Part shown: in pieces, positions 12,401 through 58,570 of the stretch
How the letters are laid out: the number at the start of each line of letters is the position of its first letter
How positions within the stretch are numbered: the first letter of the stretch is position 1
Origin: Yuukianura sp. NJ FZ-2021
Lineage: Eukaryota
NCBI GenBank assembly: GCA_046563655.1
Contig: CM102285.1
Span: 4,216,001 to 4,280,000, forward strand
Direction: 5' to 3'
Length of the DNA: 64,000 nucleotides
Translations under genes and position numbers: made by a program
The notes under the pieces: generated by a model
What the model was told of the DNA's origin: nothing
What the model saw: only the letters and a program-made list of their open reading frames with translations
Databases searched by the model: none

Positions 12401-12773
12401 TGTTGTTGCGTTCCTTGGTTTGTGTTGACAGACAGACCGACGTACAAAGGGTTTGTGTCATAATGTAGCAGTTAAGTTTAGCAACACTTAGTAACCAAAA
12501 GTGGTCGACCGGAGTTTCGGAAAATAAATTGAACGGTGGTAGTTTGGTTCCAATATAGTCTTTGTTCTCAAAAATTGCAATGTAAATATAATACAGAGTA
12601 TCAACATTATTTGCAACATTAAATTTTTAAAATGCCTCTACCTTGAGCTACCCTTTCCAACTTATGCTTCTTTTTTTACAACAGAATAAAGTTTTGTGCA
12701 TACCGAGTTCAGAGTCCTGGTGGAGCGAGGAACCACTTTATTACATTAATCAAATAATTTGTGTGTTAATAAA

Positions 12774-14156
12774 ATGAAGTTCATTAGTACCAAAATTTCA
12801 CGACTTCTAGGAGCTACTACAAAGTACTCCACGTTATACAATTCCCTTCCTTTTTTATGGAACGAAGATACAAATCAGCTCGTTCAGCAGCCTAGAAAAA
12901 ACAAAATTCTTTGGTTACTTTATGTCCAAGTTCTTTTTATTCATCAGTTATATTTGACTTGGTGTTTAATCAACACAATTTGTCATTTCAAAAACTATAA
13001 AATTACATACCATGTTCTCCAAACTACATTGTTTATAGAACAACTCATGGCAGTGGCGACACAGCTATGCATTCTCCAAAATCACCAAAATTTCATCTTA
13101 TTTTCAAACAGGAGTTTTCACTTTTTTGATCAAATTCAAAGTAGTATTATTCATTTTGAATCAAGATTTCATGACTTTTTGTTTGAAATTAGTATACAAC
13201 ATCATGCATTTTCTTTTATATTTCAGAGACGTATGTCAACTGTACCGCGAATTCCCCCAAATGGCAATCTGACCTTGAACTTCTCTTTTCAATGTGTTTG
13301 CCATTAGTCGTCACTGGACCAATTCTTATCACTTTCCTTATTTTCCAATTCCCTGAGCTGGATTTTTTACTCACAAATAATTTGCCAAACTCCTTTCACC
13401 CCGCAGTTAAAACTATGATGTCGATAATCATTAACTTTTATTTACATTCCTCAATTACTTCAACCGTTCTGGCACAAGGATTCATACATGCTACTTGGGT
13501 CTTTTCAGTTGTTTTCATTATAAAGGAAATCAAGTAAGTGCAAAACTGCTTTTTTGAATCAACACAATATTTTGCCAACATTTTTTGAAGAAACCGTTGA
13601 AAGTGTTGAAGAAATGTATCGGTATTGCATTACATCCTATTTTTTTAGCATAAAAATGGAAACAAGTCCATATACTAAACAAACAATGCGTAGTCCACTT
13701 TCAATATTTCGGACGTATAGAAACCTGCAGTTGCTTACCAGCCACTACGAATCAATCTTTGGTGACTGGCTGCTTTGGACAATGAACGACTGCATGATCG
13801 TCTTGACAGTTCTGTCCAACTTCATAATCGTGAGACACCACCGCACGAGCCCTTTTCAAACGATACTGTTCATACTGGCATCGGTCACTGGGACTACATA
13901 CTTAGTCCTAACTTACATAAAATATGGCGAGTTCAATGAACTTTCCAACAAGGCTCTGGGGAGTCTGAGAAGACGTAAAACGCATTTTCACGGCATGGAA
14001 CGACAACTAATCGGGATGTTCGTTAAATCCGCCCCGCCACTCAAAATCCATTTGGGGTCATTCGGATACTATCGGAAGCCGAATACGATTCGAATCGTCG
14101 GCAAACTCTTTGTGTACACTATGAAGTTCTTGGTTCTCACAAAGCGACTAATGTAG
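12774..14156 (+). CDS. Divergent multi-pass chemoreceptor-like (gustatory/odorant receptor superfamily-like) protein, 3 exons
   Basis: Exons 12774-13140, 13227-13533, 13649-14156 with GT-AG introns; several hydrophobic helices; C-terminal YRNLQLL...KSAPPLKIHLGSFGYY...TM pattern resembling hexapod 7TM chemoreceptors. Confidence 0.6.
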
Positions 14157-15304
14157 AAATCTAGATGAATTAAGCTCTAAATTTTATGTTGCACTTGAAA
14201 CTTGAGTACGAAATGTAGTAAAAGCAGGGAAAGGTATGTTCAACTCGGAGGTTTACCTGAATTTAAATTTAAATTCCTATATTAAACCTAATTTACAGTA
14301 GGTGTGAGAATATACCCGGGCGGACCACTACATGTTCAATTGGACAAGAAGCACAATTTACTTCTGTAATTTTGAAAATGCACTTCCATTCAAAATTTAT
14401 GCCCTCTGTTAGCTTAAAAAATTTTATGTATTTGGTCTCTGTCGTAATTTTGACAAAGGTTTTCTTCTTTTTTCTGATTATTTTTGGATGGGTTAATAAA
14501 TATAATTTTTTATTACTTTCACTCGGACGATGCCTATATTGTGCGGGAACAATGGCGACGGATGGATTCGTGAAAATGGCATACACAACAGGTTTGTGGA
14601 AATAATAGTAACCACTTTCACAAAATTAATTTTTCTAAAAGTGCAAAAACAAAATGAAACCCCCGGATCTTAACTAATCTAATCGGGTTGTAGTTGTAGT
14701 TTCTAGTTACCCGTCGTTCTATTTTATTTTTTAATTTTGTTTTACGATAGCACTGTAGTACTGATCAGTTAGTTTTATTTAACAAGATTCTTCATAACTC
14801 CTCTTGCGAAGTTAGTTAACTTTCCAGCCTCATGTCGTGATGAGTTCATTTTCCACGTTTTCGCAGAATCGTATGTCCGCAAACCCTGGATTTTGATATT
14901 CGATAACAACAGATTAGGTTTTTCAGTAAACAAACACGAAAAAAAAATAGAAAGGCTTTTCGCTCTTTGGAGCATTTGAATTCAACAAGTATAGCAAATT
15001 ACCTCATCTGCCAATTTAGTCTGCAAAAAAAAACAAATGAGCTTAGGGGAAATGCGGTTTGTCCTCTTCCTCAGAATTTTGGATGAGTCATGTAATATTT
15101 TTTCCTGTGAAATACATGTACAATTCTGAACAACAAAACAACGTTTTTGCTTTCAGTCGTTTATCTGACGAACACGTATTATTAGCAGAAGCTCTCTCCA
15201 ATTCTAAATCAGTTTGATTTTATCCAACACGACGACAACAACTATTCAACTACTTCTCAACTTTTTTTGAAACCTAAAATTTAGAAAACGCCGAATATTT
15301 CAAA

Positions 15305-17647
15305 ATGAACACCGATCCACTACCGCCACCAGAATCCTTCATTTGTCCTATCACTCTCGTTGTGATGAAGGAACCAGTGTGTGACAAGGAAGGAAATTCA
15401 TTTGAACGGAGCGCCATAACGGAGTGGATTGGACGCCATGGCTGTTCCCCAATAACACGAAGTCCCATGACCTTGGAAGACTTGATTCCAAACAGAGCGC
15501 TTAAAACCATGATCGAAGAACATTATCAATGTCCTCAAGTCCCATTTCAATGTCAAGGTGGCGGTCAACCGGAGGTGAGTGAAAGGTCAAGGTCACTCAC
15601 TGGCAACACTCAAGAAAATTCCAAACTGTCAATCACAACGGTTCTGCAAAACTCGAAGGTGCTGGTTACAATCAATCCTGGAGATTCCTTAGTCAGGTCA
15701 CCTGTGAACGTCGCCTGTGTCATTGACATCTCCGGGTAAGCGATTTACCAGGTTATACTTTTGCTGTAAAACACGAGACTAATGATTTTTTTTACCTCAA
15801 GGTCAATGGGAACAGAAGCCCAAGTCCCTGGTGACACTTCAGGAAAGGAAGCTTGTGGCCTAAATATTCTAGATGTGGTGAAACACGCCGTTGTGACGAT
15901 CATCAAGTCATTAACTGCGCAGGATTCTCTCGCAATTGTCGCTTTCTCTACTTCCGCTGAAGTCGTTTTACCACTAACAAAAATGGACCTCGCCGGACAA
16001 ACATTGGCAATAAGCAACGTCAATTCCCTTCAACCGACAAACAGTACAAACCTTTGGGCAGGACTTGAAAAAGGGCTGGATGTTTTGGTTGAAGTGAACA
16101 AGATGACTGCTGGTTCAATTTCAACCGTTTTGCTGTTTACTGATGGTGAACCCAATGTCATACCACCAAGAGGGCACATCCCTATGCTCCAGATGTACAA
16201 GGACAGTCATGGAGGTGTGTTGCCCGGACTTGTCAACACTTTTGGATTTGGATACGGACTGGACAGTCAACTATTGTATGACCTTGCGCGAGAAGGCAAT
16301 GGCATCTACGGATTCATTCCAGACAGCGGAATGGTTGGAACCATTTTTGTCAACGCCGTGGCAAATTTGATTTCTACGGTGGCAACAGATTGTCAGCTGA
16401 CAATTGAACCAGTAGGGGGCGCCACCATTGTTAATCCAGCATCAACCCTGAGGCAATATTTGGTTACAGAAGGAAAATGGGGCGTATTGGCCAACGTCGG
16501 CTCTATACAAGCTGGACAATCGAAGGATATTGTCTTGGAGTTTCAAAATTTGCCGCCAGAAGGAACAGAATTCATGCGCATAACTCTTGGAGCTAAAACC
16601 AGAAGCTATCCAACTTTCAAGCTTTCTATGACCTGCAACGTTGAAAACTATCAATCACAAATGCCTCACCCGAAACTTCTGCATGCGGCTGAGCGTTTCA
16701 AACTTATCGGCGTCATTCAGTCTGTCATGAACATCATGAAGGACGCAACGGGTGACCCAGAAAAAATAAAAGATGCGTCGCAGCTCGTTACCGCGGCAAT
16801 TCAAGCGACAAAAGCGGCTTGTGGTGGGTCAGAAATGCCACTTGAGGTGACTGCACTCATTGCTGATCTTGAAGGTCAAGTACTCGAGAGTTTACAACCA
16901 GCATATTACACAAAATGGGGACGCCACTATCTACCATCTCTGATGATGGCTCATCTGTACCAAGTTTGCAACAATTTTAAAGATCCCGGACCACAAGTCT
17001 ATGGCGGTTCGCTGTTCAAAAAGCTACGGGATGAAGCTGACACGCTCTTTCTTTCCCTTCCACCACCAAAACCTTCAATCAAAAGAGCTACAAACCAACC
17101 CGTGAACATGAGTCGGTACTACAACTCCCGTGGAGTTTGTTTCCATGGAGACAATCAATTGCAGATGGGTGACGGTGGAATGAAGGCGGTTGATGCCGTA
17201 CGCAAAGGTGACAAAGTAAAATCAGCGAATGGACAAATCACTGAAGTCGTTTGTGTTGTCCAGACAATCACAGGAGAAGAAGAGCATGACCTTGTACATT
17301 GTCCTCAGTCAGGGTTGCTAGTCACGCCGTGGCATCCAATTCGTGAGGTCAAAGGTCAATGGCTGTTTCCTATTACATTGGATCTACCACGCAAGGTCGA
17401 ATGCAAAGTTCTCTACAATTTTGTTCTGAATGGTGGTCACGTCGTCGAAATCAACGGCATGGAATGCACAACACTTGGCCATTCTTTCACTGACGAAATC
17501 TGTGCACACGAATACTTTGGAAGTGATTTGGTAGTCAAAGATTTGCAGAACATGGAGGGCTATGAACAGGGGGTTGTAAAAGTGAGCGGGGTAATTCGAA
17601 ATTCGAAAACACACCGAATTGTTGGGCTTATTCAACACGAAGAATAG
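15305..17647 (+). CDS. U-box + von Willebrand A + Vwaint + Hint (Vint-type) domain protein, 758 aa, 2 exons
   Basis: U-box PPESFICPITLVVMKEPV...FERSAITEWI...SPITRSPM...LIPNRALK. The vWA MIDAS motif DISGSM is restored by splicing intron 15736-15801, followed by TNLWAGL, LFTDGEPN, TFGFG. Vwaint-like KWGRHYLPSL..AH..Q.CNNFKDPG. Hint domain from Cys at 17138 (CFHGD...LLVTPWHPI...LYNFVL...TLGH). Confidence 0.9.
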
Positions 17648-32389: not shown

Positions 32390-33693
32390 CTAAAATGCTA
32401 AGAGAAGATTTATAATTGGTGAAATAACTACTTGGGCCCAAATGAACAAAATGAATTCTTCCGTTTCCAGCAAAGAAAAACTTCCAACTACGATGCGCAA
32501 TGGAGTCATGCTCTTCCAAAATTTTGATTCGTATTCTGAGCAGGATTTCCTTGCTTGGTGACGAGCTAGTTGAATTAAATTTTTAGATAAAATGTGCTGA
32601 TCAGTTGCGATAGAAAGGAAAAGGGATGTACATAGTATTGCAGCCAAAGCGGCAACGACAATAACAAAAACGATCACAAAATGATACTGGTCACTAGCAC
32701 GTATTGCAAAAAATGACAAAACAACAATACCGGTGAAAATATTAATAAAAAATACAATAACTAAATGTCCAAAAGCTACTTCAAATGCTTTACCAATTAC
32801 TTTAACTTTCAAAAAGTCCAAAGTATCTACACAGATTTGGGGTCGAAAACAATTGCCTTCCTCTTCCCGGCGTACTTCACTATAAACATAAAAAAAATAC
32901 TCAAGTTTTATTTAAAACTTAGAAAAAATACTTTAAATTTATTTTATAAAAACTAAAAGCAATAACTGCATGACAAATTCTACTCGAATTACCTTGCGAA
33001 TAATAGATTCTTCAGCAGTTGCTTGGTTGTAAACAAATATATGAAGATCCAATGCAACAGGGTATTACTGACGACCACTCCATGACCAAGGCCAACTGCA
33101 ATACTAAAGAAAGTAAAACACTTAAATATGATGACTAGCGAGTCGTATGTTGTAGACTGCGGGGTACTAAGTTGTGAAGCGGTAAACTCCAAAATATTAT
33201 GGATTGTTGTGAACAGCCCAGGAAATGCCAACGACGCAACGTATATGAATGGCAGAAAAATAAACGGATACGCTATTGACGTAGAGCAGAACTGGAAACA
33301 TATGATTTCAAAAGAGCGCGGCAATTTTCTAGATAAATGGAACATTGAATTGAGAGTAATGTTTGTGACGTTGATGTAACGTTGTCGTGTAGTTGGAATA
33401 AGCATAGTCCATTGTGCCAGCTGCATTATATTACAGATACTGTTTATTCCCAAAGCGATTACTTTTTCAAATTTTGTCGTAGAACCAAAAACGGTTTCGT
33501 AGTACCAACATGCTATAACTGTCCCTAAAACAACCGTAGAAAATACTCCAAACACAGTGAACGCTGTGTTGCCAACAGTGGGAACAATAGTATCAGGCTG
33601 TCCATGTCCAAAGCAGTATTTTACCGGTACGTAGTGCATGAATCTTGTCCAAGTATACATTAACCTTAGCCACAAATTGGTTCGATCAATCAT
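32390..33693 (-). CDS. Divergent multi-pass chemoreceptor-like protein, 2 exons
   Basis: Hydrophobic ORFs 33693-32993 and ~32880-32390; C-terminal KFWKSMTPLRIVVGSF...IINLLLAF parallels the gene at 12774. Confidence 0.6.
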
Positions 33694-34662
33694 AATGCCT
33701 CGACGTTTGGTGATATTAAACGAATAATTGTGGAATAGCGGCAACACGAAGATATAAAGCAGTAATGCCTTTTAAAATTCTTCTTCAGCAAGAAATGTGT
33801 TCTGGATGTTCTAAATAAAATACGTGAGCATATATTTCAAACCTGAAAGAGTCGGTGTCTTACCTTTGGCTATGATTAAATAAATTTTTGTCCATGAATT
33901 TATAAAACATGGTGTTCTCCTCCTCCTTTACATGATGTAATTTTATTTAGAAATGTAAATTACATCTCTAAATCAATTTTTTCTAAAAAAAAAAAACCTC
34001 TAGAATTGCATTTTTAATGACATACTTTTTACAACAATTGGAAATGAATTATTCATTTTTTTCTTCTAAAGCGCATAGGTTATAACGGTTCATGGAAAAA
34101 CTCGTTTTCTAGAAAACATTTTTTCCATCATGCAAAGCATTTAAAAAAATTATTGGTTTTGTTGCTAATTGTGAGTAAATCGAAGGTTTACTGGAAGTTC
34201 AGAATGTTCTGCTTACAAGAAAAGCTCGGAGAAATTGCAAAATTTATTTTTTAGTAAATTCTAGTCTACTAGAGTAATTATTAAAAACGGCATTTTCATG
34301 TCGTGCATTAATGGTCGAACAGAAAATATTTCGGTTTCCATTTTTAGTCAAACGTGATAATTAGTTTAATTTGGATGTTTACTGAAACTTTTATTGATTG
34401 AGAGGAAAGTACTTGGTTGGACGCACACGCAAGTAGCATCCACTCATTATTTTTCAGCGGATGAGGTGGCATTGCCTTTTGAACTCACCGCTCAGGATGC
34501 TGCTATATGTCTTCATCCCTTTGGACAAATTTTGCTCGACGACACATAGATGTTGAATATTTTTGAATAATTAGATGCAATGTACTATATAAGAATCTAA
34601 TTCAATCATGAAAAAGAATCAAAGTGCTTTTGATTCAACAATTTTTTCAGTGTCTACTTTTG

Positions 34663-43197: not shown

Positions 43198-43881
43198 TTA
43201 TGATTCACTTTTAGTATATTCTGAAACACCGCGGTTTTGAATTTCTTGCAATCTCATTGATATTGAGTCGGTGAGTAGATTTAAGTAAGTGACGACGAGG
43301 ATTGGAATGCAAATGGCAGGAATAACAAACGGAACGATATGATAGAATATATGCAGCAATTCAGGATTTTGCACTCTGTCTACTTCCGTCGACTGAGTCA
43401 ACAGCGGCACCTCCCAGTTGCGGTAATCTTCAATTCTCCCTGTACCCAAAGCAAATACAAATTACGCCAAAACTGATGGAAACAGTATGTATTTCTGAAT
43501 TATAATGATATTGTGTGATAATTTGTTTACTATTGTTCAACGAGGTCTGAACTTATTTTGCGTTTTTTTCTGAAAAATTACGTGTATTAGTTTCTTACCT
43601 AATGGTTTTGATATTGTTGAATCCAAAGCGATACTGGGCCACTTGGAATAAAGTCGATTGTCGTTCGTAGTTTGCGATGCGGTTGGACCATAATCAAAAT
43701 TTGCCGTGTCAATTTTTTGAGCAATTTTGTTTTTGAATTTACTCTCATAATGTTTGACTTGATGACCTGCGAACACTGTGGAAGGACTGGCTCGAATGTG
43801 ATCAGTACATGCGCCCAGAATCAGGAACAGAAAAAGCGAAACGTGGGAACTGCTTTTTAGAATCCAGTGCGCTATTTTCAT
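43198..43881 (-). CDS. Small predicted single-pass membrane protein, function unknown, 2 exons
   Basis: Signal-like N-terminus (43881-43598); phase-1 intron; exon 43439-43198 with TM segment IFYHIVPFVIPAICIPILVVTYL. Confidence 0.45.
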
Positions 43882-44844
43882 TTCAAAGGAAATTTAAATC
43901 AGCAAATCAAAAATGAAATTAATATTGAATGCGGCGCTGCTCTAATAAGAGTGAAGTTTGTCAGCCAGCAGTGTTACGGTACAGTTAAAATGATGGCATT
44001 GGGGCATTGGCTGAATAGCATGCGATGCTATTTTGGTGTACGACAAATGAGTGTGAACAAAGTGCTAATTATGGATTTTAAAATTTATGTATTATTCATC
44101 AAGCAAAAGCAAAGCATGGTTGGGTTTTGTTCGATCATGTAGATCTTGTTGATTAACTGAACCAGGTCAAGAGCTTTTTGCACCTATATTGACACGGAGT
44201 TGATGATGCCAAGAGCATGTAGCTATACTGACGCCAATGTCCTATGAAAGCTTTCAGATGTGGTTACTGCGGAAAGAAATCCAAAAGTAACCTGAACGAG
44301 TCGATAAATTACTGAAAACTATTTGGAGCGACAAAATGCAACTGAAAATTTGCAATAAAAACAAAAAATGCAGCACGAGGAATATTATACAATCTATGCA
44401 TCATAATGCTAATGCAACCCTGATGTTAAATTTCAACGGCAGATCTTCTAGCAACACATTTATCGAAGCACGTCACTATACTCAAATGATCAGCCTTTTT
44501 TTTTTACATGTAAATTCTAAGTTTTAGTTTAAGTAAATGTTGCAACGTATTAATTGCCCCAGCTTTAATTTTTTCGGCCAGTTTGTTGACATTTCAAAAA
44601 TTCTTTCGTGGCCATCCGTGTCCAAGTGGAAAAGCAATCTTATACCGAAGGCAACGTTAATGTAAACCAAAGTTTCCTTCCGACGTTTTAGTCGAATCCC
44701 CTCTGACGGACGAATGGACAGTCGTTAGATATTACAGTGTTTTCTCTGTTATATCAAAAACAAGGGACTCCCGAAAATTAAATTTCAGTTTCATGAAAAT
44801 CTGCATTTATACATAAATAAAGGCAGATATATAAGGTTAATCAT

Positions 44845-45040: not shown

Positions 45041-45871
45041 TTAATCATGTATCCAAGCAAAAGTTCTTTTGATATGCTGCCAGGCTAAATCTCCTCTCGT
45101 TGTAAACCGACTATCGTTGTAAATGGTCGTTGCAATTCATTCGGCGAAAATTATTTCGTGGTAGTTCATTCGATGTAAAGGTGTGCTTCTCGTTCTAACA
45201 AAAAGTACATTTTCTAACAGTTACGATTAAATTAACCTTTTATAAAGTATACCACTTAAGTTGTAATTCTAAAAAGAAATCCTTGCGAACACTTCCTGAA
45301 AAACACGAAGCAATTCTATAGAGAATGGGCACACTCACACACTTCAGATTAATTCCTCTTCATTCCAAAACGCAAGTAAAATGCCGACGAAACAGGCAGT
45401 AAAGACTTGGCACCAAACGAAAGTATGAATTTTTTTTTTGAAAAGTAGACACACTTGCAAGTTGCAAGGCGCACAGGCTTTTATTGCTTCGTAATGTGAA
45501 CTTCAACATTAATTAAAGAAAAAATTTCCCTTAGGTTGAAAGAAAAATTATTTCGTAAGCGCAGGCAAAATTGAAGGTTACGCGACTAATTGAAATTCAA
45601 TGAAACGATACAAGTTTCCATTATTGTTAGGTGATAAAAATAATTCTTCAATGGCATTATTAAAGAAAACGCGTGACTCATACAGCTCTATAAAAAAAAA
45701 ACATTAAAAAACGTATTTCACTTTATCTAAAAAGCAACTACGGAGGGAATTTTATTTCCATATTCTTTGCTGCTGCTAAACGAGGGAGTTCAGCAAATAC
45801 TCACTACATTAAAACACTCAAAGAAAAACACAAATACATTCACATTAGGCAAAAGATTTTATTTCTTAAGA

Positions 45872-46437
45872 ATGAACATTCCAAAAGCGTTGGTTTTCGC
45901 GTATGTTGCTGGAGTATGGTGCACCGGTAAGATAAATAACATTAACACCTAACATTCTTAAATACTGTTATAACTACTGGATTTTAGATTACACGGCATA
46001 GAATACATTTCGACTTTTGCTGATGCTGTTCCTCACGTTTGCGTACATATTCTTTTGTAGGTGCTCAGTCTCAACCACGAGACAATCTCACTATAACGAT
46101 AACCCACCACAAACGTGGACATTGTAATGGAGAAGTGGAACTGTTTTGTCATCCTACTGGCGGGACACATCCAAGACCTACTGAAGCATGCGCAAAACTC
46201 GATGAACTTGCAGAGACGAGAGAAAACTTTGCGCCACACAACGAGCAAGAGATTTGCACTATGCAGTACGGTGGACCTCAACGGGCTACAATCACGGGAA
46301 CCTGGCGAGGATACCATGTCAATAGAGGATTTGACAGAACTAATGGATGTGGGATTCGTGAGTATGACAAATTCGCAGTTGTTCTGGACATCAAAGGCTG
46401 CTCTAGTTTTAAAGGTTTCAAAGGTTCTGGACATTAA
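45872..46437 (+). CDS. Secreted subtilisin-inhibitor-like (SSI family) protein, 143 aa, 2 exons
   Basis: Signal-peptide exon 45872-45926; intron 45927-46060; SSI motifs LTITI...LFCHPTGGTHPRPTEACAKL...CTMQYGGP..ATITGTWRG..V...F...NGC. Confidence 0.85.
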
Positions 46438-47691
46438 AGGCCTTAGATGTAAAACTTGACTACACTAGAATTAATTACCAACGTTCCCCTTGGTTTTGAC
46501 TTGCGCCAAATTAAAAAATCTTCACTATGTTCTCCTTAATTTTGCTTTTTCTTTATAATTGATTCGTCCTAAAATTTTGAAATTATTGGCATTTCAACAA
46601 TTTTCTAAATTTTGACAACAGACATGAATGAAGCGGATTGTACAAGTAATCTGTAGCGTTGTTGTTGGTAGTACTAGCGTTAAAGCTGTTAGGTACCGTT
46701 CAACATACCTTTCTGGTTACATTACAACCACCAACCAACAATCTAACGTAAACGTAACCCGTAAACTTAGAACGTGACCTTTAGAGGTGAATTAATTTTG
46801 GAGTGTTCTCATTCTTCCCAGGTAGTCAATTGAAACTTAACCTCGATTACTTTAAACGCGAGCACAGTTGTTTTAATATTTTACCACGATTCTAACTACA
46901 TCGTTTTCTTTCGTTGGGTTTTTCCTGTGAACTACATCGTATTTATGTAACTCCGATTCTAAGAAAACTTTGGGCTTTAGTTCGGTTGACAATTGGACTG
47001 ATTCAAATTTAATTTATTATATTTAATATATTACTAGAATAGAATGGCATACGTTGAAGAATCGGTAAAGAAAATTCAAATAACGCTTTCCAGTTTGTGA
47101 GATTCTTGGCGAGATCATTTTTTCTGGGATTTAAGTTTTATTTAGATTAGATTAGAGCGAAACCTAGATTAGATTTTTATTTTTTTGCGATGCTGCTTCT
47201 TATGTTTGCGGAATGCGAAGTCGTACTACATGCGTAATATGCCTTACTCGGACAGGGACAATTAAGAGAGACTGAAATATTCCATGAGACATGCTCAGCG
47301 TCGTCGGCCCCAGGTCAACAGGTCAAACCCAAGTAAGCTTACGGTAATTATGTAATAGGATCTGGACGCAGATAAGACGAACCAATTTTGTAAGCTATGC
47401 CAACGAATTATTTTTAGCCCACCGAAAAAAAGGGTCCCTGAAAAAATGTTCTCAATTTTAACCCTCCAAAAAATGGGTCCCTCAAAATCTAAAAAAGTTT
47501 TCCGAGAATATGAAGCGAAAAAACAAAAACAAAACAAACAATGCAGTCAACAATGCGGAATGGATATTCACGTTTATATAAAAATAATAAATAATAATTA
47601 CATAGTAAACAAATAATAAATAATAAATAATAAATAAAAAATAAATAATAAATAAAATGAAGTTAAAAAAATTAGAATAAAAAATAAAATT

Positions 47692-47800
47692 CCCTTAACC
47701 AGAGTACTTTTTCCGCTCTGACTCATCCCGCTGATGCATATCGTAAAAGGAGCACGTAAATGAGCATCAAATGTTGCCCCGGATAACTCGTCCATAAACA
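47692..47800 (-). pseudogene. Truncated Polinton/A32-type packaging ATPase (Walker A only)
   Basis: DAHLRAPFTICISGMSQSGKSTLVKGIL, cut off at the inner edge of the left TIR. Confidence 0.6.
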
Positions 47801-48586
47801 GCGATCCTTTGCCAGGCTCTTCCGATACATATTCCACAGGAGTCAAGTGATAAGCAATGTTGTCGTTAACAGGAATGGGGACTTGCATAGTCTTGCATGT
47901 CGATTTGTGACGTTGAAAGTTATCCGACCGTCCAAACTTTTTTGAACAACCTGAACAACTCTATTCCATTCCATTCCATTCCAGCAAATGCCAGCTGATT
48001 CGAAGGACACAAAGGCATTGGAAGTTGAGGCAAAAGGCGTGCAAGAACACCAGCCGACGGAGTTGCCAAAACCGATTCTGGAGCAAAAACACTTCGATTT
48101 TTCAAACTTTCTAAAACCAGGACAAAACTTGCTTCCGCTTTTTGTGGAAGAGTGCAAGAAGAGAAGAGTGGAAGCCTCCGGCCAATTGGGAATAAATTTC
48201 AACACAACAAAAATTTACAATTCTATAAAGCATTGATTTATTATTTTGTGTTTAAATTTTTATTTAAATTTACAATTTAAATTCCCAATATACGAATTAC
48301 CTGAATTGAGGAGGAGGAGTATGGGCATGCTCTTCAGTTATCCGAGGAGGAGGGTAGGAGGAGGAGTATAGGCATGAAGACATTCAGGAACTCTGGAAAG
48401 CTTCAGCACTTCAATTCATCAACCAAAATCGTCAGCTAAGTTAGAATAGCTTGTGTCGCATTACTTCATCAGCGTTCCTTGGCATCGTAGGTTACCAGTT
48501 TAGAAGCGGAAGATGAATTAGTAGAGCTAACGCTTGACTTTTGTGGCAGACAGAAAGTAATTCAAGAACAGGTTGGATACAACGCC

Positions 48587-48916
48587 GTGGATGTTACAAA
48601 GTTTTCAAGAAGTGACTATATCGGGAAATGGGCAATTCTACGCATCAAGGGCCCAAAAATTTCCAAATCGCTTCATAGCGTTCACTGTATCGCTGTATTC
48701 TTTGATGGAACCGATGTCGCCATATACGAGCCGCTGAAGAAATTAGAAACTGCAATTGTGAAGCCGTCGAAGAAACGGCACCCGTTTCCCTTGGGTATAC
48801 TTTTAAAGCATTTATCCAATTCTTCTTATGCAGTAATAAATGGTGAACAGGACTTCACACAATTGGATTGTGTCTACAGAACATGCGAGTTTGTTCTGTC
48901 AAAATGTCTTGCATGA
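48587..48916 (+). CDS. Possible adenain/Ulp1-like cysteine protease remnant
   Basis: His/acidic/Gln/Cys residues in the expected order: VHCIAVFFDGTDVAIYEPL...INGEQDFTQLDCVYRTC. Confidence 0.4.
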   Translation: MDVTKFSRSDYIGKWAILRIKGPKISKSLHSVHCIAVFFDGTDVAIYEPLKKLETAIVKPSKKRHPFPLGILLKHLSNSSYAVINGEQDFTQLDCVYRTCEFVLSKCLA

Positions 48917-50242
48917 TTAATTGTTATTGCTTAAATTTAATGTTTTAATCATTTAACGTTATTTTTAATATTTATTCAACTATATTTCAATTTTATTTTT
49001 TATTCTAATTTTTTTAACTTCATTTTATTTATTATTTATTTTTTATTTATTTATTATTTATTTACTATGTAATTATTATTTATTATTTTTATATAAACGT
49101 GAATATCCATTCCGCATTGTTGACTGCATTGTTTGTTTTGTTTTTGTTTTTTCGCTTCATATTTTTGGAAAACTTTTTTAGATTTTGAGGGACCCTTTTT
49201 TTGGAGGGTTAAAATTGAGAACATTTTTTCAGGGACCCCTTTTTTTTCGGTGGGCTTAAAATAATTACGTGAAGTCACCCCCGAACACTCTACTGACACA
49301 ACTACTAATTTTTGCATTTTAGTAGGATTTAGCAGAAGTTCAATTGCAGAATTCATACTAACTTTCCGAAGGTATTGTTTGTTTGTTAATTTTCAACGCG
49401 TGTGAAACAGCAATTCAAATCAACACATCTTGATGTATGCATGGAAAATTTAAACTGTTGAGCAACTAAAACTAAAAGTTATCGAAACAATTATTTCCAA
49501 TTCTTTTTTTTCTTGAAATTACTTGGATATTGTCCATTTTAATTGGCATGTGCCCGGAGTTTATAAAATTTGTAATTCTTCGAACAGACAGAAGAATAGC
49601 CTTTGCAATTCCAACAAAAATTCAAACATTTTTATCATTCTTTTATTGGTACAACAGTTTTAATGAGCAGATTTGAAACCCTTTTGATATATCCCCCGTA
49701 AACGTTATTATAATTTAGAAATTTGAATTGAATAAAATTGAATTGAATAAATGAGGTTCTTCCGTCTTCCCTCTCCCGTTTCACCTGCCAGGTTGATATT
49801 TCCACCAATTTCTGAGGATTAGTTCTATACACTTGGGAAACAAGCAGATGAGTACAGTCAACAGTGCTACAGTCTACTTCAACCGAATATGTTCTCTTTT
49901 TCTCCAATGTCCTTGTCCATGTCCACCCACATGTGGTCCAAAATAAAGATTTAGAGACAGCGTTTGTTATTTTTAGTAAATTTGAAATTTTTAACTGTGT
50001 AAAGTGTAAACACCCGATTATTAAAAGATTACAACTACAAGACGCGAACTTAACAAACTTCGAACTTTCACAATTGCTGCTAGATTATTCGTTGAAAATT
50101 CTAACAAATTTACGCACTCAAACCTGGTTGATAGTTTGTCGATTTCTGGAGGGAGAAGGACATTTGTTTTTAACACTTCCGGTTGGATCTGCTTTACTCG
50201 GAATTCAAGTCATCCATTGTAGAAGATACAGCCGAGGCGGTG

Positions 50243-56848: not shown

Positions 56849-57619
56849 GTTAATTTTTTTTTATTTTTGAATTTTTAAATATTTAGTTTACTAATAAAAC
56901 TATACCGATGCAGTGAATTTTAATTCCACAGATTAGAGGAAAACGAGAGAATAAAATTTTTGGCTTCCTAATTCAAGAAATGTAATGTTGCATTTCTTCG
57001 TTTTACTTGTTTTGTAAACGATTACGCTAAAAATTAAATTTAACACGAGTTTTATTCATTTATTTTCAGATACCGAAACATTGAGGTTCATATTAATTTA
57101 TTTTATTTCTGTTTTACTTTTAAGTTATGCGGACGTGGCTATATATTTGATGAAATTTTTTTTGCAAATTTTGTTTTCTTGATGTTCTAATTTTATTGGC
57201 TAGTGGTTTGGCTACTGAAATTCTGATTTAAAAAATTTCCAATCCTATCAGTAAAGTGACAAAGAGATGATGTAAGGTGGGCTGGCTACTGCCTCCGATA
57301 TCGATTAAAAATTCTTATTGATTTGTTCATGTACTATGTAGGTATTTACGTTTTGCCCAACAACGTGTTTCCGCCAATCCCTCGTGACGTGGGTGTGGTA
57401 AAATATTTTTGTGTGGCACCTTGCACGGGTTAATTTCTCAAAACTAATATTTTATCAACAAAAAATATTGGCAGGACATGACGAAGCGACGAAAACTGCG
57501 AGATGGGTAGATGTGGATTCGTCTGGACAAGCTGAATTCGTGTAAGTTCAAAATTTACTATTTTTGAAATAATACGGACTCAGTTTATTTTTGAATTGAT
57601 TTGTACTTTATTTTAGGCA

Positions 57620-58570
57620 ATGAAGCTCTCCAAAAATGTAACGCTGGTGAGATTACGTCGCTTGAGTCTTGGAATCTTGATTGTTATCTGCATTGGTACT
57701 TGGATCATATATTCCCGTCAAGTGAATCGCTTTGCAGTGGACAAAAACATTGACGTGTCCAAATACACGCTGGATGGACAGATTCTAAACATTCCGTCGT
57801 GGATCTTCGAGGGGCGTTGGGGAATCTCGAAGCTTAAAATTGATCTCACGGAGGAGGATTTTAAAATCCAGGCAGGAGCAGCTGATAAAGAAGAAGAATA
57901 CTCCTGGAGAAACTTCTTCAGCGATACAACCAATGGACTGATGCTGGAACTTGGAGCTGTTGATGGAAAAATGTACAGCGTTAGCAAGTTTTATGAAGAA
58001 AAGGCAGGATGGAAATCGATTCTGATTGAAGCAAGTCCAGAAGCACGGAAAATCCCGAAGAATCGTCCGAACGCTCTCAGTTTTCAGCTAGCAATATGTG
58101 AGAAGAGGTCCATAATCCACTTTGCGCATGGACAAGAAGTCGGTGGAATTCTGGAATTCATGTCACCAGAGTTCGTTCGAGAGTTCCATTCTTCACTGCT
58201 AAAGGACAACTTGGGACCAAGTGACACTAAAGTGGTTGACATGGTGGATTGGGACAAAGTACGCGATTCGGTTCAAGTCGCTGAACAACCTTGCCTTACT
58301 CTGCAAAGTGTCTTGGATCGCTTTCTAATAACACATATTAATTTTATGGTTCTGGATCTCGAAGGAGGGGAGTTGTCTGCCCTTAAATCACTGGATTTCA
58401 GTAAGATTAAATTTGATGTAATGTGCGTAGAAACAAATCGATTTGGTAATGCAAATGATCCGTACATTGATCAAGTTGTAAAATACCTTACAGGGAAAGG
58501 TTACAAGTTATTCGACCGAATAAGCGGACGAAATTCTTGGTTTGTTTCTCCAGCTTGGCAGAAACCGTAA
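57620..58570 (+). CDS. Type II membrane FkbM/Methyltransf_21-family protein (Star-like)
   Basis: N-terminal TM; GLMLELGAVDG..YSVS..YE...GWKSILIEASP; CLTLQSVL; HINFMVLDLEGGELSALKSLDF...FDVMCVE; uninterrupted CDS. Confidence 0.85.
   Translation: MKLSKNVTLVRLRRLSLGILIVICIGTWIIYSRQVNRFAVDKNIDVSKYTLDGQILNIPSWIFEGRWGISKLKIDLTEEDFKIQAGAADKEEEYSWRNFFSDTTNGLMLELGAVDGKMYSVSKFYEEKAGWKSILIEASPEARKIPKNRPNALSFQLAICEKRSIIHFAHGQEVGGILEFMSPEFVREFHSSLLKDNLGPSDTKVVDMVDWDKVRDSVQVAEQPCLTLQSVLDRFLITHINFMVLDLEGGELSALKSLDFSKIKFDVMCVETNRFGNANDPYIDQVVKYLTGKGYKLFDRISGRNSWFVSPAWQKP

Follow-up and report, generated by a model that had tools for sequence, protein, structure and literature searches.

A subtilisin-inhibitor-like gene with a predicted intron, probably transferred from an actinobacterium, in the genome of a springtail-like arthropod

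The gene described here lies on the forward (+) strand of the window, by which we mean the whole 64,000-nucleotide stretch of DNA that was analysed, and is read as two exons separated by a predicted spliceosomal intron. Exon 1 (45872..45926, +; 55 nt) opens with an ATG and holds 18 codons and one base, and exon 2 (46061..46437, +) encodes the mature protein, which belongs to the Streptomyces subtilisin inhibitor (SSI) family, and ends in a TAA stop. The intron between them (45927..46060, +) is 134 nt long, with phase 1, GT-AG borders and a GC content of 0.32, and reading across the predicted join gives an open frame for a 143-aa protein. The donor reads CCG/GTAAGA and the acceptor TTCTTTTGTAG/G; within the predicted intron, CTGAT at 46020-46024 resembles a branch site. 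Position 45927 is the sole phase-1 donor among the four GT sites near the junction; two of the five AG sites there, 46060 and 46081, keep the frame as acceptors, with the better pyrimidine tract at 46060. Because the first Met in the stop-to-stop frame of exon 2 (46024-46437) is the reactive-site Met itself, the SSI domain requires the predicted splice or a non-ATG start. The predicted signal peptide of exon 1 has Lys5, a hydrophobic stretch at residues 6-17 and small residues at 18-22; its hydropathy peaks at 2.34 over residues 7-15, and the n/h/c layout, judged on hydropathy, fits a signal peptide. From this leader, which itself depends on the predicted splice, we infer that the protein is secreted. 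A preliminary description of this DNA had proposed an SSI-like gene with a phase-1 GT-AG intron and a signal-peptide exon, and the frame, donor, acceptor and phase found here bear that reading out, with intron and signal peptide as predictions from the sequence. Upstream, TATAAA and an Inr-like TCACT stand about 30 nt apart in a candidate core promoter (45689..45722, +); the pattern was defined after the site was seen, so the promoter is at best suggestive, and with 1.43 expected, the 2 matches that the window contains are not above chance. A candidate polyadenylation signal, ATTAAA (46510..46515, +; read by eye), follows about 70 nt past the stop.

Assignment to the SSI family (MEROPS I16) comes from exon 2, which matches the Pfam SSI profile PF00720 at 51.5 bits (E 1e-13; cut-off 23.9) over 46087..46323 (+), model positions 5-85 of 92. 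By profile comparison this match is far beyond chance, and the HMMER search that the preliminary description had set as its check therefore came out in favour of the family. In the alignment to PDB 3ssi, Cys48, Cys62, Cys84 and Cys115 (precursor numbering) fall on SSI Cys35, Cys50, Cys71 and Cys101, and Met86, Trp100 and Asn113 fall on SSI Met73 (the P1 residue), Trp86 and Asn99. The first family pair, Cys48-Cys62 (46147..46191, +), is invariant in the homologue alignment; Cys115, the partner of the P3 cysteine, closes the motif Asn113-Gly-Cys115 (46342..46350, +). The cysteine positions thus match both SSI disulfide pairs (35-50 and 71-101), as had been claimed, with the bonds assigned by position. 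The reactive-site loop, P6 to P5' (46246..46278, +), has Cys84 at P3, Thr85 at P2, Met86 at P1 and Gln87 at P1', followed by Y-G-G-P, so that the proposed Met at P1, within C-T-M-Q-Y, is borne out by the 3ssi alignment, as are the P3 cysteine and the Trp86 and Asn99 equivalents that belong to a reactive loop of this type.

Structural comparison points the same way. Of the seven PDB sequence matches, six belong to SSI variants or to the related protein ScNPI. An AlphaFold2 model built from a 60-row alignment has a pLDDT of 86, although it leans on the bacterial alignment; a single-sequence model reached only pLDDT 34. With this predicted model as query, Foldseek placed SSTI, SSI and sermetstatin best (E 3e-6 to 2e-4), and all PDB structure matches listed with E < 0.001 belong to one of these three. 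The top structural match has E 3e-6 and Z 9.7 over 102 residues at an rmsd of 5.2, and Z lies between 9.7 and 8.7 for SSI (PDB 3ssi, 2sic), SSTI (6i0i) and sermetstatin (4hwx, 4hx2), whereas the next fold reaches 4.6; identity between the model and the solved SSI structures is 18-28%, and they superpose at rmsd 4.7-7 Å. The predicted model accordingly has the SSI fold, in which two helices accompany an antiparallel sheet; SSI itself forms a homodimer through its beta-sheets. In addition, an ESM Atlas feature search returned SSI clusters of Actinomycetota (0.92).

Within the family, the closest group carries the loop C-T-x-x-Y-G-G-P (here the YGGP paralogue), in contrast to the Y/W/F-x-P-V/M of canonical SSIs. 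A phmmer search of 1.84 billion representatives (50%-cluster library) gave 1101 matches, the best 150 at 33-53% identity; 20 of these 150 were looked up, and four had an organism name, all Streptomyces, with no eukaryote named. A GTDB scan kept 80 loci of 584 confirmed matches, 79 from Streptomyces and one from an uncultured actinobacterium, a taxon list that is biased because the scan pattern was drawn from Streptomyces-rich rows; the pattern fails to match the arthropod protein's own loop. Each of five Streptomyces-type genomes contains one YGGP gene and, besides it, between one and three canonical SSIs, 15 matches altogether. The arthropod protein shares with the YGGP paralogue the C-T-x-x-Y-G-G-P loop, the G-G-x-H-P and G-C motifs and its side of the tree branch described below, and its Y-G-G-P places it outside the canonical SSI/STI subgroup (Y-x-P-V loop; includes 3ssi). 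In the 163 parsed of 180 paralogue rows, P1 is M in 74, Q in 39, E in 17 and L in 8, and the arthropod loop carries the commonest residue at every position from P3 to P5'. Of the 28 columns conserved at 80% or more, 26 are retained, against 17 of 50 variable columns, a count inflated because the homologues were selected by similarity to the query. Two near-invariant residues after the last family cysteine are changed, Arg (94%) to Glu119 and Trp (97%) to Tyr120, and several loop prolines of the paralogue are replaced. The best NCBIfam model, PRK13244.1-2, scored 60.5 bits, below its cut-off of 197. In Streptomyces the YGGP gene adjoins tRNA-Ser and tRNA-Arg in all eight loci checked, and such a tRNA-flanked site could be an integration hot spot that helped to mobilise the gene. 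By eye, a PAS-kinase-like ORF stands on the other flank, and integrase-like ORFs lie beyond the tRNAs at two loci (L073 and L078).

Two surplus cysteines and a direct repeat of 18 bp, all unmentioned in the preliminary description, mark off the arthropod protein. Cys40 (46123..46125, +) is absent from the bacterial consensus, and Cys132 (46399-46401, +) lies within a low-confidence C-terminal tail, the last residues having a pLDDT of about 52 in the AlphaFold2 model; exactly four cysteines occur in 190 of 192 homologous cores, which were trimmed and selected on the four-Cys pattern. The even number of surplus cysteines suggests a third disulfide, in which Cys40 may pair with Cys132. Two 18-nt direct repeats, 94% identical and 43 nt apart, bracket the tail (46381..46441, +), and past the second repeat the frame offers an alternative short Cys-bearing end (region 46381-46469), so that a small duplication, which the repeats suggest to be recent, may have rewritten the C-terminus. 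That the 43 nt separating the repeats are a second intron seems unlikely, since the stretch is short and its donor, GTTCTG, weak.

In an assembly of 98.7 Mb, the window is found 4.2 Mb along a 15.3-Mb contig, and the neighbours of the gene in it include a plexin A, a rhodopsin-type GPCR and a class I tRNA synthetase. The plexin scores 193 bits against the Drosophila Plexin A isoform A of PDB 6fkm, compared with 100 to Plexin-A1/A4, and subtilases of this genome resemble Orchesella and Folsomia proteins; these point to an arthropod host, as had been proposed, and to a springtail-like one. About 970 nt downstream of the gene is an element with terminal inverted repeats (TIRs) of about 280 nt (47406-49266). 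It contains a fragment with the P-loop G-M-S-Q-S-G-K-S-T, which resembles Maverick/Polinton packaging ATPases, and other pieces of it recur at many places in the host genome (108 matches), so that the element is probably non-autonomous and carries pieces of another repeat. Carriage of the SSI gene by this transposon was rejected, since the element lies beside the gene and does not surround it.

That the gene entered the assembly as bacterial contamination or through a chimeric join is barely credible. Its named close relatives are all bacterial and no animal orthologue was found, as contamination would have it, but GC3 is 0.36 in the SSI gene and 0.40-0.43 in five host coding stretches as against 0.93 (0.86-0.99) in the 80 Streptomyces matches, a gap that makes contamination very unlikely, and over 124 codons the usage is in favour of the host by 169 nats. 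The AT-rich flanks of the gene are continuous with the window, the gene needs its predicted intron, and host repeats lie 1 kb off. None of 833 high-GC3 neighbouring ORFs from the 80 Streptomyces loci matched the window outside the SSI exon, by which a multi-gene transfer was also rejected. Assembly-level linkage to host genes, host-like codon use and the predicted spliceosomal intron are what mark the gene as domesticated. It is single-copy in the host genome, with one match each by protein, Pfam and DNA search, and the DNA search found no second copy of exon 1, nor a detectable donor for it, elsewhere in that genome. A recently silenced copy, in which the intron and signal exon would be chance features, is very improbable; the tail that seems to be the product of a 43-nt duplication, the TIR-bounded element close by and a promoter-like pattern no commoner than chance would suit it, whereas the SSI domain is free of stops and frameshifts and one frame accommodates start, leader, donor, acceptor and phase. 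Comparison with eight Streptomyces homologues, moreover, shows differences at 19-23 of 24-28 fourfold sites (saturation, to which the GC shift contributes) alongside identity at 49-55 of 101-107 residues, with the key residues retained, which points to long purifying selection on the coding sequence. Such a pattern speaks for an old transfer that selection has maintained, and against contamination or a long-dead copy.

Two trees bear on the donor. A quick tree of 193 rows and 110 columns comprised one GTDB locus in three, together with the 15 genome matches and phmmer matches, rows outside the four-Cys pattern being dropped; it split the YGGP group, including the query, from the canonical rows at 99, with the query among other YGGP rows at a position that carried no starred support. 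In a careful tree of 50 rows, hand-picked after the first tree was seen, a branch of length 1.0 with 100/100 support separates the YGGP rows and the query from 10 canonical rows. The query joins 17 Streptomyces-type rows at 95/93, and these 17, with the query left out, make up one side at 69/76; the topology test does not reject a query placed at the base of all YGGP rows (p-AU 0.14). Also included was P0129, a Logan/JGI protein of 495 aa with two tandem canonical-type SSI domains, a canonical Y-K-P-V loop and no obvious leader, which is taken as fungal-like from its composition alone. A clade of the query with both P0129 domains is rejected (p-AU 0.0012), which suggests a transfer separate from the fungal-type SSI, the published fungal sequences lying outside the tree, and a route through Mucorales-type SSIs appears unlikely on this phylogeny. 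The preliminary description had put forward a phylogeny with actinobacterial and fungal homologues as a check. The query groups with the actinobacterial homologues, on the YGGP side of the 100/100 branch, in agreement with the actinobacterial origin claimed; it does not group with P0129, the sole fungal-looking SSI in the tree. The donor would then be an actinobacterial YGGP gene, with Streptomyces as the likely source, and we regard a horizontal origin of the gene as highly probable.

Compared with SSI, the arthropod protein has the four cysteines in register, the P3 Cys, the P1 Met, the equivalents of Trp86 and Asn99 and predicted secretion in common, and differs in its loop, where P1' is followed by Y-G-G-P, a residue more than in Y-D-P, in two extra cysteines, in a longer tail and in the eukaryotic leader exon and predicted intron of its gene. 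With the actinobacterial YGGP paralogue ('SSI family serine proteinase inhibitor') it shares 42-51% identity over the 80 GTDB loci and the same loop; it departs from that paralogue in its animal host, low GC3, predicted intron, two extra cysteines and Glu119/Tyr120, and no bacterial neighbour gene accompanies it. In the part of the Mucorales report available to us, 11 SSI-like genes in Choanephora cucurbitarum and three in Absidia glauca are traced to actinobacteria (PMC5238444). Those genes resemble ours in being eukaryotic SSIs ascribed to actinobacterial transfer, secreted and with four cysteines, and one of them contains an intron, as is predicted here; they are, however, fungal and multi-copy and were proposed to counter plant subtilases, whereas the arthropod gene is single-copy (PMC5238444). 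Microbial genes domesticated in a soil hexapod are described, in the portions consulted, for Orchesella cincta (PMC4987106) and Folsomia candida (PMC5490193), and expanded bacillopeptidases are common to Orchesella (PMC4987106) and the present host. The searchable parts of the two supplements (PMC4987106, PMC5490193) contain no SSI or subtilisin inhibitor entry, a blank that weighs little for Folsomia because the word 'inhibitor' is absent from its searchable files altogether.

Searches for another animal SSI, in the databases and literature covered and within the best 150 of the 1101 phmmer matches, found none. A word-index protein search gave two matches among four candidates, both bacterial-looking, a search of proteins of 30-67 aa gave no SSI match, and none of 30 viral contigs contained an SSI. 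The 226 pattern matches of a metagenome scan reduced to two loci and were set aside as chance, an unrelated bacterial ORF of 280 aa matching over 36 residues. The InterPro entry IPR019019 is, we assume, the H-type lectin domain. A paper on a snail names 'peptidase inhibitor I16 domains (IPR019019)' in the part we consulted (PMC12690972), and we think that this is a mislabel; if it is right as printed, the claim of a first SSI in animals falls. The Mucorales report was the only account of a eukaryotic SSI in the literature searched (PMC5238444), and a mite paper was discarded when the SSI phrase proved to be confined to the title of a reference (PMC6275457). The gene is therefore probably the first SSI to be described from an animal, and a separate transfer of the little-studied YGGP paralogue. 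The SSI family, actinobacterial and Mucorales so far, would gain animals through an intron-bearing copy under selection. The find is less surprising in view of the hundreds of transferred genes that springtails are known to carry; besides, the gene has one copy and so far lacks an orthologue.

Our preferred explanation, which we consider probable, is that the locus holds a nuclear gene, domesticated by a springtail-like arthropod, that came by an old transfer from an actinobacterium, probably Streptomyces, as a YGGP paralogue and encodes an SSI-like inhibitor. The bacterial leader would have been swapped for a eukaryotic signal-peptide exon joined by the phase-1 intron, and the protein would be secreted, disulfide-bonded and act like SSI by the standard mechanism. 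In that mechanism, a disulfide-tethered loop binds a serine protease like a substrate and is barely cleaved. In the arthropod protein such a loop would enter the active site as a substrate mimic, Met86 would occupy a hydrophobic S1 pocket, with the Met86-Gln87 bond bound and hardly turned over, so that enzymes of the subtilisin/proteinase-K type (S8A) would be blocked. No paper in the literature searched, a limited library, shows the YGGP paralogue acting as an inhibitor; inhibition of subtilisin is therefore deduced from the fold and the reactive loop, and by analogy with SSI we expect that the arthropod protein is an active subtilase inhibitor, with good though not full confidence.

What the inhibitor would act on divides the remaining explanations. 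Mainly microbial targets, which the preliminary description had proposed and which are reasonable, namely fungal and bacterial subtilisins that a soil animal feeding on microbes would meet at its cuticle or in its gut, are ranked first as the single most likely role, though we advance them tentatively, at somewhat below even chances. One cuticle-degrading microbial subtilisin of this kind is Pr1. The tick protein BmSI-7 reportedly acts on Metarhizium Pr1 and is, as a native arthropod subtilisin inhibitor, a functional analogue for defence, although it is not of bacterial origin and its fold, of the TIL type, is unrelated to that of SSI. The defence role is plausible. With origin and mechanism unchanged, the main targets could instead be the animal's own secreted subtilases ('bacillopeptidases') in gut, moulting fluid or haemolymph, a reading that the preliminary description had missed and that we hold to be a realistic but lesser possibility. 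The host genome has 48 exon-level matches to PF00082 and at least 19 secreted, intron-bearing, bacillopeptidase-like S8 loci of one family; in 18 of the 19 read, a single open frame includes the catalytic-Ser motif G-T-S-M, and most also have signal-peptide-like starts and Asp and His motifs. One such exon has Orchesella and Folsomia bacillopeptidases and oomycete subtilases as its closest named relatives. As far as the parts consulted go, the bacillopeptidase family expanded after horizontal transfer in Orchesella (PMC4987106), and Sti is a brake on an endogenous protease cascade in Streptomyces (PMC4255298). The host subtilases and the Sti precedent make internal control a close rival to microbial targets. 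On the other side, a single inhibitor gene faces some 19 proteases, no subtilase gene was recognised among the long ORFs of the window, and Orchesella and Folsomia possess these proteases while no SSI match was named to either in the best matches and supplements searched, so that such subtilases can be kept without this inhibitor.

A further reading accepts a real, expressed gene whose product acts on another protease class, such as S1 chymotrypsin-like enzymes or, after the manner of the double-headed sermetstatin and SSTI, metalloproteases, or has a non-inhibitory role at a surface; this we find unlikely. Chymotrypsin-like enzymes are suited by a P1 Met, so that Met86 fits them as well, and the top structural matches include SSTI and a sermetstatin bound to a metalloprotease. 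Documented activity of the YGGP paralogue is missing from the literature searched, and Glu119/Tyr120 and the extra cysteines deviate from that paralogue. There is precedent for a surface role in a surfactant Sti-like protein which, in the sections consulted, is incorporated in hyphal surfaces (PMC4255298). Set against this, P3 to P5' are identical to the paralogue consensus, and P1 is variable among the homologues, as expected of a site in contact with proteases.

As a small and easily expressed protein, the arthropod inhibitor could tell whether the widespread YGGP paralogue inhibits subtilisins, and could show whether a bacterial inhibitor here meets microbial proteases or the host's foreign-derived subtilases. 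It is a realistic but lesser possibility that the first animal SSI acts, inside the host, as a brake on the expanded subtilases that the springtail acquired horizontally. If so, an animal would have built a secreted inhibitor system from two unrelated microbial donors, with oomycete-like proteases and an actinobacterial inhibitor, and would have added a fresh leader exon, perhaps with a third disulfide, to suit animal secretions. The fungal-type inhibitor domain I78 (PF11720) also appears above cut-off twice in the host genome (C4:58717-58821 and C4:6819373-6819480), and the host may on this account have gathered more than one microbial inhibitor.

Several other features of the window were recorded. 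About 2 kb upstream of the SSI gene and divergent from it, an ORF at 43537-43893 (-) has a signal-peptide-like start and gave no Pfam or NCBIfam match. Multi-pass membrane ORFs that by eye resemble divergent gustatory-receptor-like genes lie at 12750-14156 (+) and 32390-33771 (-), and Pfam scans of three stretches gave no match for them. A single long ORF at 57617-58570 (+) combines an N-terminal hydrophobic anchor with an FkbM methyltransferase domain. Finally, a gene with one short intron at 15278-17647 (+) joins, by Pfam, U-box, VWA, Vwaint and Vint (Hint) domains, an architecture typical of protists and fungi, and is another candidate for transfer.
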